Under the pieces are notes generated by a model, which saw only the letters and a program-made list of their open reading frames with translations, did no database searches and was not told the DNA's origin. Shown here one piece after another: positions 1,183-44,258 of a stretch of DNA of 44,292 nucleotides; the first letter of the stretch is position 1, and every line of letters starts with the position of its first letter. The stretch comes from Candidatus Sediminicultor quintus (GTDB lineage Bacteria > Atribacterota > Phoenicimicrobiia > Phoenicimicrobiales > Phoenicimicrobiaceae): contig MEYH01000048.1 of NCBI GenBank assembly GCA_001773955.1, forward strand, positions 13,787 to 58,078, given 5' to 3'. A program made the translations under genes and the position numbers.

Positions 1183-1262
1183 AAATAGTCGCTAGTAAAG
1201 AAGAAAATAGAATACAGGAACAAAGTTAGTATATAGTAAATAAAGTAAAAGAGAAAAAAGAA

Positions 1263-1283
1263 GGGGCGTATTGCATACACCCT
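1263..1283. repeat. degenerate REP-like hairpin (GGGGCGTATTGCATACACCCT)
   Basis: One mismatch from the GGGGCGTAT..ATACGCCCC stems at 17832 and 24264. Followed by CTGATAG, as is the copy at 32822. Confidence 0.4.
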
Positions 1284-1369
1284 GATAGTATATAGCGGGT
1301 AGCGAAATAGTGTAAAGTGTAGAACTAAAAACGCAAAACCAAAACTTAAAAGTTAAAATTGAAGAAAAA

Positions 1370-1420
1370 GTTTTGAATTTTGAATTATGGTTTTTCGTTT
1401 TTCGTTTTAAATTTTTAGCT
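1370..1420 (+). repeat. element B copy (GTTTTGAATTTTGAATTATGGTTTTTCGTTTTTCGTTTTAAATTTTTAGCT)
   Basis: Same 51-nt sequence family at 3072-3108, 24136-24186 (reverse) and 36819-36926 (interrupted). Internally made of doubled heptamers TTTTGAA x2 and TTTTTCG x2. A partial inverted copy (CTAAAAACGCAAAACC) lies at about 1325-1340. Confidence 0.7.
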
Positions 1421-1512
1421 AACCAGAAATCACTTAAAGCCAACCATATAACTGGTTAACTGAATATCTGAATAATTATAGATAATTAAAGACGACTTAA
1501 AAATATGAAAGG

Positions 1513-2826
1513 ATGGATGTTTTGAATAAAATGTCAACATTAGTAGTAGTTGGGTCTCAATGGGGAGACGAAGGAAAAGGTAAAATAACTGATTTGCTTT
1601 CCGAGGAAGCAGACATTATTGTTAGATATCAAGGGGGTTGTAATGCGGGTCATACGGTAGTAAAGGGAGATAAACAATTTATCTTTCACCTTATACCTTC
1701 TGGTATCTTGCATAAAGGGGTAAAATGTCTTATCGGTAATGGAGTGGTGATAGATCCGGAAGCTTTATTGCAGGAAATAGAAAATTTAAAGAAAAAAAAC
1801 ATAGAAATCGATGACAATTTATTCATAGATTTTAAAGCCCATGTTGTCTTGCCTTATCATAAAACCTTGGATGAGATAAAAGAAGTGAAAAGAGGGAAAG
1901 ATAAAATAGGTACAACCAAAAGAGGTATTGGCCCAGCCTATGTAGATAAAATTGCTCGCACCGGGATAAGAATGATTGATTTGATCGATGAAAAGTTTTT
2001 AGCAAAAAAATTAGAGAATAATCTAAACGAAAAGGATACTATTTTTGAAAAATTGTATGGACTTAAAATACCTAATCAGGAAAAGAAGGACATTTTGAAA
2101 AAATATAGGGAATATGGTCAATTGTTAAAAAGATATGTGACAGATGTTTCCCTATACCTAAATAAGGCAATTAATGAAGATAAAAAAATATTATTTGAAG
2201 GTGCTCAAGGGACTCTCTTAGATGTTGACCATGGGACTTTCCCTTATGTAACCTCTTCTAATCCAATAGCCGGCGGGGCTTGCATTGGGACAGGCGTAGG
2301 TCCTACCAAGATAGACAAAGTTATGGGAATAACCAAAGCCTATACTACCCGAGTAGGAAGAGGTCCTTTCCCTACGGAAATGCAAGGGGAATTGGAAGAA
2401 TATACTCGTCAAAAAGGGGGAGAATTTGGAGCCACTACTGGAAGGCCTCGAAGGTGTGGTTGGTTCGATGCGGTATTGGTAAAATACGCAGTCAGAATTA
2501 ATGGGATGGATAACATGGCTCTAACCAAGGTAGATGTCTTAAGCGATTTTGACAAGGTCAAAATATGCATTTCTTATAAGTACAATAAAGAAATAATAGA
2601 AGAGTTTCCAGTTAATTTAGAGATCTTACAGAATTGTATCCCGGTATATGAAGAGATAGAAGGATGGAAAGGAGATATTTCTCAGATAACTCAATACGGA
2701 GACCTTCCCCAGCAATTAAAGGATTATATCAATCGAATAGAAGAATTGGTAAAAACCAAAGTAGTTATAGTATCTGTAGGTCCCAAAAGAAGTCAAACTA
2801 TTATCAGAGAAAAAATATTTAAATAA
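1513..2826 (+). CDS. purA: adenylosuccinate synthetase
   Basis: [12 protein letters not shown]-loop, [18 protein letters not shown]. Longest ORF starts at ATG 1513. By homology the true start may be ATG 1531 ([18 protein letters not shown]). Confidence 0.95.
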
Positions 2827-2880
2827 AAAATAAAAATTAACTAATTGTTTGTTTGGTTAGTTAGTTAACTGGTTGAGAAA

Positions 2881-2964
2881 AAGAAGTCAGAATTCAGAAG
2901 CCAGAATTCAGAAGCCAGAATTCAGAAGCCAGAAGCCAGAATTCAGAAGTTAGAAGCCAGAATA
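2881..2964 (+). repeat. 12-unit heptamer array CAGAAGC/CAGAATT
   Basis: Counted units: AAGAAGT CAGAATT CAGAAGC CAGAATT CAGAAGC CAGAATT CAGAAGC CAGAAGC CAGAATT CAGAAGT TAGAAGC CAGAATA. Confidence 0.95.
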
Positions 2965-2977
2965 AAAAAACAGAAAT

Positions 2978-3037
2978 GTCATTGCGAGTGACCGCAGGGA
3001 GCGTGGCAATCCCGTACCTTTTGAGATTGCTTCGTCG
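2978..3037 (-). repeat. truncated GTCATTGCGAG-family palindromic element
   Basis: Left terminus GTCATTGCGAG, then TGACCGCAGGGAGCGTGGCAATC, which matches the reverse complement of 17926-17960. Continues to GAGATTGCTTCGTCG. The right terminus CTCGCAATGAC is missing. Confidence 0.6.
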
Positions 3038-41140: not shown

Positions 41141-41191
41141 GAAAAAAGAATAGTAATATATAAGGACAAGATGAATCGTTCCAACTCGTTT

Positions 41192-41215
41192 CAACACAGC
41201 ACGCTGTGTTGCTAC
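41192..41215 (-). repeat. hairpin of REP architecture with an unrelated stem
   Basis: CAACACAGC AC GCTGTGTTG CTAC. Confidence 0.5.
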
Positions 41216-41260
41216 AATTACTGATTAATTAAAATTGACCAGGTAACTTGCTGATTATTA

Positions 41261-41299
41261 AATTGAATTTAATTGGTCAATTGTCAATTGCTAAATTGT
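41261..41299 (-). repeat. AATTG-type 7-8-mer array, complement-related to 38786-38821
   Basis: AATTGAATTT AATTGGTC AATTGTC AATTGCT AAATTGT. Confidence 0.55.
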
Positions 41300-41320
41300 A
41301 AACACTTGCATCTTACATTT

Positions 41321-41354
41321 GTACTAACGACTATTCACTAACGACTAACGACTA
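41321..41354 (-). repeat. reverse-complement TAGTGAA/TAGTCGT array abutting the uvrA RBS
   Basis: ACGACTA TTCACTA ACGACTA ACGACTA. 41331-41354 is the exact reverse complement of 41113-41136. Confidence 0.95.
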
Positions 41355-41374
41355 ATTCAGAGGAGAGTTCTTAA

Positions 41375-44197
41375 ATGGTTCAGGCGAAGATAATAATTAA
41401 AGGGGCACGAGAACATAATCTAAAGAATATTAATTTGGAAATACCTAGAAACAAATTAATTGTAATTACCGGATTGAGCGGTTCCGGTAAATCTTCTTTA
41501 GCTTTTGATACGATTTATGCAGAAGGCCAGAGAAGATATATTGAATCTTTGTCTTCTTATGCTCGTCAATTTATGGAAAGAATGAAAAAACCTGACCTGG
41601 ATTACATCGAAGGATTATCGCCGGCGATTTCTATTGATCAGAGAAAAGCAAGTAAGAATCCTCGCTCTACCGTAGGCACCGTAACGGAAATTTACGATTA
41701 TTTACGGTTACTTTTTGCCCGGATTGGAATACCTCATTGCCCGCAGTGCGGTAGGCAGGTTAGCAAGCAGACGGTCGAGCAGATGGTTGATCAAATTATA
41801 AATTTATCCCCGGGAACAAAAATACAAGTTTTAGCCCCGGTAATTCGCTTCAAAAAAGGTGAACACAAACAAATATTAGAAGATATTCAAAAGAAAGGAT
41901 TTGTTAGAGTAAGGGTTGATGGAAACACTTTCGAAGTAGAAGAGGATATAAAAATAGATCGTTATAAAAATCATAATATAGAAGTTGTAGTAGACAGGTT
42001 AATAGTAAATCCTGAAATGAAGACTCGTTTGGCTGGTTCTATCGAAACTGCTTTAAGTTTAAGTGAAGGAATAGTAGTTATTAATATAGAAGATGGTAAA
42101 GAAAAGATGTTTAGCGAGCATTTTTCTTGTCCCAGCTGTGGAATTAATTTACCAGAAATTGCTCCCCGAATCTTTTCATTTAATAATCCTTATGGAGCCT
42201 GTCCTGCTTGTGGTGGTTTAGGTTTTAAAATGGAATTTGATCCGGAATTAATTGTACCGGATAAGAACAAATCTATCCTTCAAGGTGCCTTAGTGCCCTG
42301 GGGAGAGGTTAAAGGAAAATATTTATACCACATATTAAAGGGTTTAGCCGATTTTTATGGCTTCAGCCTTGATACATCTTTCGTTAAATTAAAACCTGAA
42401 CTTCAGGAGATTATGTTATACGGCTCGGGAGGTATAAAAATACCCTTTAAATATCAGAATGATGAACAATCTACCAATTGGACTCATGAAAATTCTTTTG
42501 AAGGAGTAATTAATAATTTAAAAAGACGTTATCGAGAAACTAAATCAGAATATATTCGCACAGAGATACAAAAGTTTATGAATATTGGACCCTGTCCCTC
42601 TTGTGAGGGTAAAAGACTTCGTCCGGAAAGCTTAAGCGTTACTATTGATGGTTTTTCTATAGCGGATATTACCGAAAAATCTATCAAATGGAATTATGAT
42701 TTTTTTGAAAAACTGAAATTAGATGAAAGAAGAAGGATAATTGCCGTTCAAATTTTAAAAGAAATAAAAAATAGATTAAGTTTTTTAAGTAATGTAGGTT
42801 TAAATTATCTAACCCTATCTCGTTCATCTGCTACATTAGCAGGAGGAGAAAACCAGAGAATCCGTTTGGCTACCCAGATTGGCTCGAGCTTAACCGGAGT
42901 ACTTTACATCTTAGATGAACCGAGTATTGGTTTACATCAAAAAGATAATTCAAAACTTTTGAAGACTCTTATCAAACTGAGAGATTTAGGGAACACAGTG
43001 ATAGTAATAGAACATGATGAAGCTACGATGAGAATTGCAGATTACATTGTAGATCTTGGCCCTGGAGCAGGTATACATGGAGGATATTTAGTAGCTGAGG
43101 GGAGCTGCAAAGATATAATAGAAAATAAGAAATCTATTACTGGAAAATATCTGAGCCACTTCAGCAAGATTGATATCCCCTCCAGAAGAAGAAAGGGTAA
43201 TGGGAAATATTTAAAGATTTACGGAGCTCGTCAGTACAATTTAAAAAATATTGATGTATCTATTCCATTAGGTACACTGACTTGTATTACTGGAGTATCC
43301 GGTTCCGGGAAAAGTACTTTGATCGAGGAGACCTTGTATAAAACTTTAATCAAGAAAATATATCAGAGCAGAGTTCATCCTGGTGATTATGATAGGATTG
43401 AAGGAATAGAAAATATTGATAAAGTGATAATTATCGATCAATCACCCATAGGCAGAACATCTCGCTCTAATCCTGCTACTTACACCGGGGCATTTGCTCC
43501 GATTAGAGAAATATTTTCCAGGACAAAAGAGGCTAAAATTAGAGGTTATAAGGCGGGTAGATTTAGCTTTAATGTAAAAGGCGGTAGATGTGAGGCCTGT
43601 CAGGGTGGAGGGATAGTAAAGATTGAAATGTATTTTTTACCTGATGTATATATACCCTGTGAAATTTGTAAAGGCCAAAGGTTCAATCGTGAAACTTTGG
43701 ATATAAAATATAAGAGTAAAAATATAGCTCAGGCGTTAGATATGACTGTTGAAGAGGCTCTGGGATTTTTTTCAGCAATCCCTATTATAAAAAGAAAATT
43801 ACAAACTTTATATGATGTAGGATTAGGATATATAAAATTAGGACAATCCGCCACCACTATATCCGGTGGTGAAGCGCAAAGAGTGAAATTGGCTAAAGAA
43901 TTAAGCATTAAAAGTACAGGAAAAACCGCATATCTTTTAGACGAGCCTACTACTGGTCTGCATTTTGATGATGTAAAAAAATTACTCAATGTTTTAGATA
44001 GGTTGGTAGAGGCCGGGAATACAGTTTTGGTAATTGAACATAACTTAGAAGTAATTAAATCAGCAGATTATATTATTGATCTTGGTCCGGGAGGCGGAGA
44101 AGACGGCGGAAGAGTTGTGGCCGAGGGAACTCCTGAAGAAATAGCATATAATAAGAATTCATTTACTGGAGAATTTTTAAAAAAAGTGCTAAATTAG
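41375..44197 (+). CDS. uvrA: excinuclease ABC subunit A
   Basis: Two ABC modules ([20 protein letters not shown]), signatures LSGGENQR and ISGGEAQR, zinc fingers CPQCG and CEAC..C. Confidence 0.96.
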
Positions 44198-44258
44198 TCG
44201 TTAGTGAATTAGTCGTTAGTGAATAGTGAATAGTCGTTAGTATATCGTATCGCGTAAA
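44195..44258 (+). repeat. nine-unit array starting with the uvrA stop codon
   Basis: TAGTCGT TAGTGAAT TAGTCGT TAGTGAA TAGTGAA TAGTCGT TAGTATA TCGTATC GCGTAAA. Confidence 0.95.

Follow-up and report, generated by a model that had tools for sequence, protein, structure and literature searches.

Why should the gaps between the housekeeping genes of a bacterium be filled with short tandem repeats of one and the same period? The question is raised by a stretch of 44,292 nucleotides (nt) from Candidatus Sediminicultor quintus (contig MEYH01000048.1, positions 13,787 to 58,078), analysed here at its full length and referred to as the window, in which arrays of tandem heptamers such as TAGTCGT/TAGTGAA recur between the genes. 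Intergenic heptamers of other kinds, namely the repetitive sequences known as STRRs (short, tandemly repeated) and the GGGAATC and TAACTGA repeats, have been catalogued for decades and have no agreed origin or function; the window represents an extreme case. It comes from Atribacterota, a major lineage of deep sediments and a phylum with almost no genetics. The analysis described below suggests that the arrays are probably, though far from certainly, arms of intergenic cassettes that fold into hairpins, two arms to a cassette, and belong to the same kind as the intervening sequences (IVS) of 23S rRNA genes.

Period-7 arrays and their inverted partners

Exact arrays were scored as self-match runs of at least 10 nt at a lag of 7 and compared with dinucleotide-preserving shuffles. 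The non-coding part of the window (5,551 nt) holds 17 such runs, whereas the shuffles average 0.03 and never exceed 1, and the 38,741 nt of coding sequences (CDS) hold none. Among other periods, 3-6, 9-13 and 15 yield no runs in the spacers, period 8 yields one and period 14, that is, twice 7, yields four. When mismatches were tolerated, 49 arrays were called in four fully annotated loci, all of them outside the CDS bodies, with some reaching the last codons or the stop. The arrays had been pointed out in an earlier, sequence-only reading of the window, which in these respects proved accurate: all of its coordinates that were checked with Tandem Repeats Finder and by inspection of the spacers carry the unit that it had named, the absence from genes apart from the last codons is as it had noticed, and the drift of units by single bases within an array is seen in the unit catalogue (TCGTATA, TAGTGAA, TAGTATA, TAGTCGT and others, none containing a G-run). 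Its statement that almost every spacer is occupied was a mild overstatement: of the 23 spacers with a length of 60 nt or more, 16 contain arrays. Arrays are also found beyond the window, at a density per 100 kb of 44 in 196 kb of related loci, close to the 41 of the window itself and about 80-fold above the 0.5 found in 1.35 Mb from other phyla. Two long contigs (L083 and L084) and 18 metagenome contigs with CoaE proteins 75-93% identical provided the syntenic loci for the comparison of strains; the control set consists of 80 loci taken from a UvrB scan of genome contigs, in which 65% identity was the best among the matches listed and no close relatives were among these.

The arrays are arms of inverted pairs that close the spacers. 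In the window, these pairs extend over up to 50 nt and are 78-100% complementary. The G/T-rich arm, with units reading T[AC]G... (TAGTGAA, TAGTCGT, TAGTATA, TCGTATA, TCGAGTA and TAGCGTA), starts either at the stop codon of the preceding gene or on it, and five genes are terminated by the first TAG of an array. The complementary A/C-rich arm generally ends 5-20 nt ahead of the next Shine-Dalgarno (SD) sequence, and a canonical, GGAGG-like SD is kept downstream of the arrays. The ratio of G/T-rich to A/C-rich arrays is 24:4 near the left gene and 7:28 near the right gene (Fisher p = 1.8e-7); the rule holds for genes on the minus strand too, and most of the exceptions can be put down to boundary artefacts or to a different repeat family. 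Because this handedness is unchanged by reverse complementation, the strand of transcription is not distinguishable from it. At least six unit families occur within one genome, and the six listed by the sequence-only reading do exist as units but are not independent, its 'forward' and 'reverse' lists being the two arms of inverted pairs.

Seven spacers (ligA-gatC, hflK-fba, pfk-dnaE, orf75-tRNA, polA-coaE, ade-uvrB and uvrB-uvrA) are predicted to fold with 25-44 end-to-end pairs and z-scores of -4.9 to -8.3. The coaE-ade spacer reaches z -6.4, yet its minimum free energy (MFE) fold contains 0 end-to-end pairs. Pairing across a gene, from the 5' to the 3' untranslated region, was set aside as an alternative: judged by eye, the arms around a gene usually differ in family, and pairing within the spacer is therefore favoured. 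Strand asymmetry in G-U wobbles was considered as a sign of selection at the RNA level and abandoned as uninformative, the energies being alike on both strands. At L143:129-172, TAGTGAA and TAGTCGT pair with each other in RNA via G-U wobbles, and a G/T-rich arm alone could form small local hairpins of about -9 kcal/mol, whereas its A/C-rich counterpart is expected not to, given its base composition.

Across about 20 related strains, the length of a given spacer varies between 47 and 590 nt, and the long spacers of the window represent strain-specific insertions. That these spacers are unusually long for a bacterium, as had been suggested, is unsupported because non-coding DNA makes up only 12.5% of the window, which we judge to be ordinary. 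In the uvrB-uvrA spacer, TAGTCGT/TAGTGAA is matched with ACTAACG/ACTATTC in the window and TAGTATA/TAGTATT with ACTATAT/ACTAAAT in L084; L083 has a cargo-free minimal hairpin there, the sole remainder being an 11-bp palindrome, CAGTATATA-G-TATATACTG. Between coaE and ade, groups of strains carry TCGTATA with TATACGA, TCGTATCTCG with CGAGATACGA, or TAGCGTA with TACGCTA, and the pairs are nested in L091. Not only do both arms switch family jointly at the same spacer (e.g., TAGTATA with ACTATAT), but in a swap test the own arms of a strain outpair arms exchanged between strains, the observed mean being reached in 31 and 202 of 10,000 permutations for the two spacers. Through slippage and replacement, units change in family and in number while the arms stay matched. 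Hairpin-templated copying was considered as the source of this match and rejected because the unit numbers of the two arms are not positively correlated.

It could be argued that the arrays are plain long simple sequence repeats (SSRs), made by slippage and surviving only outside genes, with no structural or cassette meaning. Heptamers are indeed described as the commonest class of long SSRs in prokaryotes, with polymerase slippage proposed as their source (Mrazek 2007, as relayed in PMC4679880), copy number differs between near-identical loci, and several arrays of the window are partnerless. Furthermore, a viral scan with three copies of TCGTATA returned unrelated single arrays only, that is, isolated arrays in unrelated viral contigs. 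Slippage does not, however, predict inverted pairs of up to 100% complementarity, a fixed handedness, the joint change of both arms between strains or the repeated bracketing of one gene family in several phyla (see below), and we consider this explanation improbable.

A PF05635 gene between the arms

In several strains, the loop between the arms contains an open reading frame (ORF) of about 120 amino acids (aa) that belongs to PF05635, the '23S rRNA-intervening sequence protein' family (E = 1e-40), with further matches to TIGR02436 (four helix bundle protein) and, at a weaker level, Avd; the structure of a homologue is available (PDB entry 2gsc, five chains). Full, frameshifted and truncated copies are located in the polA-coaE, coaE-ade and pfk-dnaE spacers of different strains. 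The gene is bracketed by arms in five of five contexts: lptB-DUF3084, fabZ-lptB, polA-coaE, between genes for an ECF sigma factor and its anti-sigma factor, and beside an insertion sequence (IS). The 5' bracket consists of [TAGTCGT/TAGTGAA]n followed by TAGTATTTAGTAAA and a purine-rich leader, and the 3' bracket of [ACTAACG/ACTATTC]n, which contains the stop codon of the ORF; the consensus arrays are TAGTSNN and ACTAWYS, with 2-6 and 4-7 units, respectively, most commonly 5 and 5. Loci encoding an identical PF05635 protein show whole-unit differences in either arm, which points to slippage. Arrays of the window are 97.5-100% identical to these cassette arms over up to 40 nt; the arms found around PF05635 genes in this lineage are thus also those of the window. 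The purine tract that follows several of the arrays resembles the leader of the PF05635 cassette and, given its similarity to intact cassettes in relatives, is probably a remnant of it. The recurring order of modules noted in the sequence-only reading (heptamers, purine-rich tract, GC hairpin) is seen in the spacers and can be reread as the 5' arm of a cassette, a leader remnant and an insertion resembling repetitive extragenic palindromic (REP) elements.

An ORF of the PF05635/TIGR02436 family is known from the 23S rRNA IVS of Leptospira, Coxiella and alpha-proteobacteria, and IVSs act at the RNA level. Their stems are reportedly excised by RNase III, with descriptions attributed to Burgin and colleagues (in Cell, 1990), Ralph and McClelland (in PNAS, 1993) and Evguenieva-Hackenberg and Klug (in 2000). 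As in the 23S IVS, long inverted arms enclose the Atribacterial element and the cassettes of relatives encode an ORF of the same family; moreover, the arms of one IVS, in Azospirillum (see below), are themselves tandem heptamers. Unlike the 23S IVS, the Atribacterial cassettes lie between protein-coding or tRNA genes, extending from stop to SD, rather than in an rRNA helix, and the copies in the window lack the PF05635 ORF. Most of the spacers in this Atribacterota lineage are best explained as holding cassettes or their ORF-less or cargo-swapped derivatives, consisting either of arms, a leader remnant and a REP or a miniature inverted-repeat transposable element (MITE), or of arms alone.

A full cassette would then follow the stop codon of the preceding gene and comprise about five G/T-rich heptamers, a short purine-rich leader, a gene for a PF05635 protein of about 120 aa (four-helix-bundle, Avd-like) and about five complementary A/C-rich heptamers, followed by the SD of the next gene. 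Presumably co-transcribed with its neighbours, it would be zipped by its arms into a long double-stranded RNA stem, with the cargo looped out and the upstream stop beside the downstream SD; by analogy with the 23S IVS, this stem would probably be cut by RNase III. The tandem build would result from replication slippage and be tolerated as a repeat stem can re-pair after register shifts. As 7 is not divisible by 3, a TAG-type arm is predicted to stop all three frames and could for that reason abut or replace a stop codon. With the G/T-rich arm placed first, the C-rich, G-poor arm, which resembles a Rho utilization (rut) site, may be kept from Rho until its partner has been transcribed. The functional analogy behind this scheme comes from the Correia/nemis elements of Neisseria, hairpin MITEs in mRNA that are cut by RNase III, from the enterobacterial repetitive intergenic consensus (ERIC) elements and from the intercistronic RNase III sites of T7, all of which are likewise co-transcribed, inverted-repeat elements with long stems. 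Those elements are fixed in length and sequence, and the Correia elements have TA target duplications, whereas the Atribacterial stems vary in unit, unit number and loop.

Several observations weigh against the cassette interpretation. The window contains no intact PF05635 gene or significant remnant of one (best tblastn E = 3.3), and its arrays are tied to the cassettes solely through arm identity and orthologous spacers. The lengths of the two arms are not positively correlated (rho -0.49). Six spacers, with an A/C-type array only or with none, fold no better than shuffles, several arrays of the window are unpaired, and ends that pair strongly are limited to about half of the orthologous spacers, which means that the stem can be dispensed with. 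Stem energies are the same for the two strands, both as duplexes and in MFE folds, and the sequence therefore singles out neither RNA nor DNA as the level of action. Finally, the link between PF05635 and heptamers, and the Atribacterial arrays as such, may already be published, as the literature search was incomplete.

The equal energies of the two strands would also be in keeping with a selfish or recombinational element acting at the DNA level, with arms that serve as terminal inverted repeats or as portable homology in transposition or gene conversion and play no role as an RNA stem. Such a selfish, recombination-driven cassette is a serious rival on function, not on anatomy, and it overlaps with the IVS-like cassette on origin. 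Presence, absence and cargo swaps among strains 75-93% identical in CoaE, the nested pairs in L091, PF05635 paralogues of 75-91% identity in different spacers, the same arms at at least 10 loci of one genome and identical 34-nt direct arrays around a whole gene all fit this view. With respect to MITE features, the heptamer cassettes have terminal inverted repeats, and their loop content and length differ per spacer and strain. On the other hand, neither a target-site duplication nor an associated transposase was seen at the PF05635 cassettes examined, although a duplication is not discernible here because the palindrome extends to the very ends (AATTAGT...ACTAATT). The exact placement from stop to SD, together with the persistence of hairpins in the essential accB-accC operon and in a phage tail operon, described below, argues for compatibility with, or use in, expression, and a genuine 23S IVS is built alike. 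On balance, a purely DNA-level element appears unlikely, although not remote.

A further alternative is that the arrays are binding sites of a protein, either a translational regulator, as for TAACTGA, or the PF05635 protein itself, with the heptad spacing as the binding register. The A/C-type arm lies 5-20 nt upstream of starts, like TAACTGA in Beggiatoaceae (PMC4679880), five units are the commonest arm length in Atribacterial cassettes, and PF05635 proteins are Avd-like, with five chains in the 2gsc entry of a homologue. Binding by one protein is difficult to reconcile with the use of different units at the same spacer by related strains, with the number of unit families in a single genome, with the canonical SD kept downstream of the arrays and with the many arrays that have no PF05635 gene nearby. 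We accordingly give it little credence compared with the cassette interpretation.

Brackets and hairpins in other lineages

The association between heptamer arms and PF05635 genes extends beyond Atribacterota. In Xanthomonadales (X. arboricola and a Lysobacter), homologues of 2gsc, which is Xanthomonas XCC0516, are encoded between accB and accC; the accB stop is directly followed by four GGGAATC-type heptamers, and four GATTCCC-type heptamers immediately precede the accC start. Altogether, 17 PF05635 loci outside Atribacterota were examined, of which 13 have inverted tandem repeats on both sides; most of these repeats are heptamers, and the units are specific to the lineage (GGTGACA with CTGTCAC; AGTAGGG with CCCTACT; AGGGTGT with CTACACC; AAAAGGG with CCCTTTT; TCAGGAG with CTGACTC; GGTTCAA with TTGAACC); among the remaining four, two are one-armed beside an IS and two have direct arrays. 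The bracketed gene of Azospirillum lipoferum lies within the 23S rRNA gene (Rfam LSU_rRNA_bacteria, 907 bits) and represents a genuine IVS, with GAGGACG/GATGACA and TCCGTCC/TCTGTCA as its arms. A tblastn search of 72,556 plasmids with the Atribacterial protein returned 36 records, mostly cyanobacterial (Nostoc 14, Calothrix 4 and others). For three cyanobacterial copies, the surrounding 20-30 kb contain 3-6 arrays in total, two of which flank the PF05635 gene each time. At least three other phyla thus show an analogous bracket, made of heptamers unrelated to the Atribacterial ones, around PF05635 genes of Xanthomonadales, cyanobacteria, Riemerella and, in the case of the real IVS, Azospirillum.

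On the cyanobacterial plasmids of Anabaena sp. 90 (pANA02; L173), Pseudanabaena (L179) and Picosynechococcus (L180), PF05635 genes are located inside CRISPR-Cas operons, between cas6 and cas4 or between cmr2/cas10 and cmr3, with tandem-repeat arrays flanking the genes.

Heptamer hairpins are found in phages as well. Seven IMG/VR contigs with 47% GC contain a 25-nt arm pattern, and one of them (L150, IMG/VR 3300028561_000085) carries a siphovirus-type tail module with cargo-free heptamer hairpins placed exactly between the stop of a tail gene and the following SD (574-622, 1826-1873, 8130-8225 and 9862-9910; folds with z -5.2 and -4.7); similar hairpins are present in L147, L152 and L153. One of the hairpins uses the Atribacterial TAGTCGT/TAGTGAA units, and three use GTTCAAG, the rotated unit of the PF05635 arms of Riemerella. 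A search of IMG/VR by peptide patterns found no PF05635 relatives.

Among the heptamer families known from bacteria, the cyanobacterial STRRs were reportedly described by Mazel and colleagues in 1990, with the units CCCCAGT (STRR1), TTGGTCA (STRR2) and CAACAGT (STRR3). In all rotations and on both strands, these units have 0 tandem copies in the window. The comparison with STRRs made in the sequence-only reading is nevertheless a fair one: 7-bp STRRs have been reported to form hairpins between the co-transcribed hupS and hupL genes, as possible transcript stabilisers or translational couplers (PMC2670836), and the heptamers of Xanthomonas and Nostoc obey the same stop/start strand rule as those of the window (PMC4692102). 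Both STRRs and the Atribacterial arrays are tandem, non-coding 7-nt units that form hairpins between co-transcribed genes and have remained unexplained in function, and the cyanobacterial PF05635 genes found here are bracketed by such arrays. The differences lie in the host, which is not a heterocystous cyanobacterium, in the AT-rich T[AC]G-type units and in the much higher density of the Atribacterial arrays.

A close precedent is that of the GGGAATC and GGGGA(C/T)T heptamers of Xanthomonas and Nostoc; in Xanthomonas, each genome has 70-75 inverted pairs in convergent arrangement (Rehm et al. 2015; PMC4692102). The heptamers lie either within 50 bp after a stop on the coding strand, sometimes overlapping the stop, or within 50 bp upstream of a gene on the other strand, are enriched between co-oriented ORFs, vary in copy number and are mostly transcribed; their function was stated as unknown, and G-quadruplexes were proposed, with no mention of four-helix, S23 or IVS genes (PMC4692102). 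The rule of sense orientation after stops and antisense orientation before starts is shared by the Atribacterota arrays, and the same Xanthomonas repeats bracket the PF05635 gene between accB and accC. This shared positional rule would speak for an action of the Atribacterota arrays, too, through non-B DNA such as G-quadruplexes. The Xanthomonas and Nostoc units are G-rich, whereas the Atribacterial units have no G-tract, cannot form quadruplexes and obey the same rule; quadruplex formation is therefore not the common denominator, and for this lineage it is effectively refuted by unit composition, so that we assign it next to no probability.

The direct TAACTGA repeats upstream of start codons in marine Beggiatoaceae, cyanobacteria and Bacteroidetes, with a patchy distribution, provide stops in all three frames (MacGregor 2015; PMC4679880). 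They resemble the Atribacterial arrays in being numerous intergenic heptamers close to starts, and in both cases forward units may overlap the end of the upstream ORF. The TAACTGA repeats are, however, nearly all direct, with one inverted case, and replace the ribosome-binding site (RBS), whereas the Atribacterial arrays form inverted pairs and leave a normal SD. The claim of the sequence-only reading that no description of these families was known has to be divided accordingly: the class is known from xanthomonads and cyanobacteria, and the lineage, the units, the density and the link to PF05635 appear to be new. The repeats of the window, a real and striking feature, belong to a known kind and occur here in a phylum and with unit families that are apparently new, and their density is unusual; the connection to PF05635 and IVS is apparently undescribed.

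More tentatively, and with less confidence than we attach to the cassettes of Atribacterota, it can be proposed that inverted heptamer arrays and PF05635 genes are two parts of one widespread class of elements, in which STRRs, GGGAATC repeats, some 23S IVS stems and the arrays of Atribacterota and phages would all be stems or ORF-less relics of cassettes that insert between stop and RBS and are looped out and probably cut out. Should this be correct, heptamer repeats unexplained since 1990 would gain an origin and a testable function at the RNA level, and 'intervening sequences' would extend from rRNA to ordinary operons; upheld genome-wide, the link would unify several repeat phenomena. It could be tested in Xanthomonas and Nostoc, with respect to IVS-like processing of operon spacers, the coupling or insulation of cistrons by repeat stems and the role of the widespread PF05635 proteins. 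For annotation, it matters that the arrays donate stop codons and C-terminal residues and alter spacer length between strains.

Features of the window and its spacers

The arrays, arms and REP-like hairpins of the window are listed in Table 1.

Table 1. Heptamer arrays and REP-like hairpins in the window (positions are those of the whole stretch)
Feature	Coordinates	Strand	Units, placement and pairing
CAGAAGC/CAGAATT array	2881..2964	+	11.6 units, purine-rich
purB A/C-type arrays	3161..3231	+	CTATACG x4.4, then ACTAACG/ACTATTC, before purB SD; no matching 5' arm; fold z -0.6, no better than shuffles
ilvE A/C-type array, unpaired	7484..7514	+	ACGAGAT x4.4, upstream of ilvE; 28 nt identical to inner arm of L091 cassette
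pcrA TAG-type array	12419..12451	+	Directly after pcrA stop; REP-like inverted pair 12452-12475/12505-12528 within spacer
ppiC G/T-type array	12547..12569	-	TATTGCG TATCGAG TATTGCG on minus strand, directly after ppiC stop
ligA array	17799..17829	+	TAGTGAA/TAGTCGT; includes ligA stop codon
gatC A/C-type arrays	17967..18005	+	CTATGCG x3.6, then ACGAGATAC, upstream of gatC SD; family unlike that of 5' arm
rnhA-2HADH fusion-gene array	22337..22371	+	ACTATTC/ACTAACG, upstream of gene
hflC TAG-type array	24294..24330	-	Read on minus strand; abuts hflC stop
pfk-dnaE 5' arm	28706..28747	+	GTATCGA/GTATATA, period 7/14, and purine tract
pfk-dnaE 3' arm	28839..28894	+	ATACTCG/ATACTAT units; fold with 28 end-to-end pairs, z -5.2
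orf75-tRNA-Leu 5' arm	32690..32743	+	TAGTATA x3, TCGTATA x3 and purine tract AGTAAAGAAAA; first TAG is orf75 stop
orf75-tRNA-Leu 3' arm	32861..32912	+	Pyrimidine tract and TACGACA/TACGATA; ends 5 nt from 3' end of minus-strand tRNA-Leu; 32692-32741 pairs with 32861-32910 (50 nt, 78%); fold with 44 end-to-end pairs, z -7.4
polA-coaE 5' arm	35758..35796	+	TAGTGAA/TAGTCGT; first TAG is polA stop; then leader-like tract TAGTCTTTAGTAAAGAAAATAAAAAAAG; 97.5% identical over 40 nt to PF05635 cassette arm in L095
polA-coaE 3' arm	35919..35948	+	ACTAAAG ACTATTC ACTAACG ACTAA; ends just 5' of coaE SD GGAGAGG; MFE fold with 43 end-to-end pairs, z -6.0
coaE-ade 5' arm	36714..36745	+	TAGTATA TCGTATA TCGTG and purine tract; moved 135 nt from coaE stop by 155-nt MITE inserted at stop
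coaE-ade 3' arm	36985..37044	+	AACGATA TACGACA x3; ends 8 nt 5' of ade start; orthologous arms co-vary in 17 strains
ade-uvrB 5' arm	38828..38876	+	TCGTTAG TGAATAG TATATCG TATATCG
ade-uvrB 3' arm	38973..39038	+	ATATACG x6.6; 38841-38858 pairs with 38998-39015 (18 nt, 100% complementary); spacer fold z -4.9
uvrB-uvrA 5' arm	41110..41140	+	TAGTCGT x2, TAGTGAA x2; begins 3 nt past uvrB stop
uvrB-uvrA 3' arm	41321..41357	+	ACTAACG/ACTATTC; ends 3 nt 5' of uvrA SD; 41110-41137 pairs with 41330-41357 (28 nt, 96% complementary); fold z -8.3
uvrA arrays	44195..44252	+	TAGTCGT/TAGTGAA, then TAGTATA/TCGTATC; include uvrA stop; then purine tract and GTAG-headed REP, cut by window end
REP-like hairpins	7374; 12452-12475; 12505-12528; 17832-17859; 18332-18355; 21331-21386; 24264-24286; 38893-38917; 44277-end		

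The CAGAAGC/CAGAATT module recurs beside 5' arms in L089, L090, L093 and L095, and similar units, TCAGGAG/TCAGAAG, make up PF05635 arms in Nostoc punctiforme. The arrays at 22338-22371 and 24297-24330 share 34 identical nt in direct orientation and flank a gene with its spacers; the two copies could allow the gene as a whole to be deleted or exchanged. This gene (22470-24119) encodes a 549-aa fusion of an RNase H domain and a D-2-hydroxyacid dehydrogenase.

The window has a GC content of 34% and encodes 30 proteins and one tRNA, the latter being the sole match in an Rfam scan. The housekeeping genes comprise guaA, purA, purB, speH, speE, murI, ilvE, aspC, pcrA, ppiC, msbA, ligA, gatCAB, hflKC, fba, pfk, dnaE, tRNA-Leu, polA, coaE, ade, uvrB and uvrA. 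A GatB protein identical to that of the window is encoded on contig DAIMII010000020.1 of the metagenome-assembled genome GCA_036722815.1, and some of the CoaE relatives with 79-92% identity are named 'Candidatus Atribacteria bacterium' by NCBI; the lineage belongs to Atribacterota and is probably JS1-like. Two adjacent paralogues of SpeH-type SAM decarboxylase, the second one divergent, are encoded at 4819-5591. The 75-aa product of orf75 (32465-32692), the stop codon of which is the first TAG of a heptamer array, has no family match and is conserved 3' of dnaE in all three syntenic strains. Upstream of tRNA-Leu(CAA), a near-consensus sigma-70 promoter (TTGACA, 17 nt, TATAAT) is located at 33007-33060 on the minus strand; the divergent tRNA-polA spacer has no heptamer array.

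The loops between the arms contain GTAG-headed REP-like hairpins, a MITE of 155 nt and further small elements. The REP-like hairpins, GC-rich and with a GTAG head or CCCCTAC tail (e.g., GTAGGGGCACGATGCATCGTGCCC), lie inside heptamer-bounded loops, and the pair at 12452 and 12505 has an arrangement like that of REP doublets forming hairpins (REPINs) or bacterial interspersed mosaic elements (BIMEs). REP and BIME sequences are characterized by an imperfect, GC-rich palindrome, about 25-35 nt long and headed by GTAG/CTAC; the heptamer arrays lack it, and the separate loop hairpins have it. The GC hairpins were considered as intrinsic terminators and rejected, as the sense strand shows no U-run after them. 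A MITE of about 155 nt with a palindromic structure (GTCATTGCGAG...CTCGCAATGA) is present at 26456-26610 and 36562-36717 (152 of 155 positions identical), with related copies near 2978 and at 17865-17960. The copy at 36562 reaches into the final codons of coaE and gives the gene its stop; the end of coaE differs in other strains.

A GC-rich palindromic mini-element, CTGTCTGCG...CAGGCAGG, is found at 21341-21378 and 36853-36909, with one copy within the loop of a REP hairpin, one interrupting an TTTTGAATTTTGAATTATGG element and one in the polA-coaE spacer of L083. Another dispersed element, GGTTTTGAATTTTGAATTATGG(Y)TTTTCGTTTTTCG...TTTAAATTTTTAGC, occurs at 1371-1420, 3070-3110 and 36820-36930 and, reversed, at about 24150-24195; it has period-7 runs of its own (TTTTGAA and GTTTTTC) and is behind most of the apparent exceptions to the handedness. 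Finally, period-8 arrays (AATTTACC/GGTAAATT, AATCGGTG and TTAGTTAG/AACCAGTT) form spacer hairpins or lie ahead of start codons, at 38786-38821 and 41271-41302 of the window, 18100-18200 of L084 and 470-568 of L094; their handedness is partly opposite to that of the heptamers, and the pair in the window brackets uvrB rather than a spacer.

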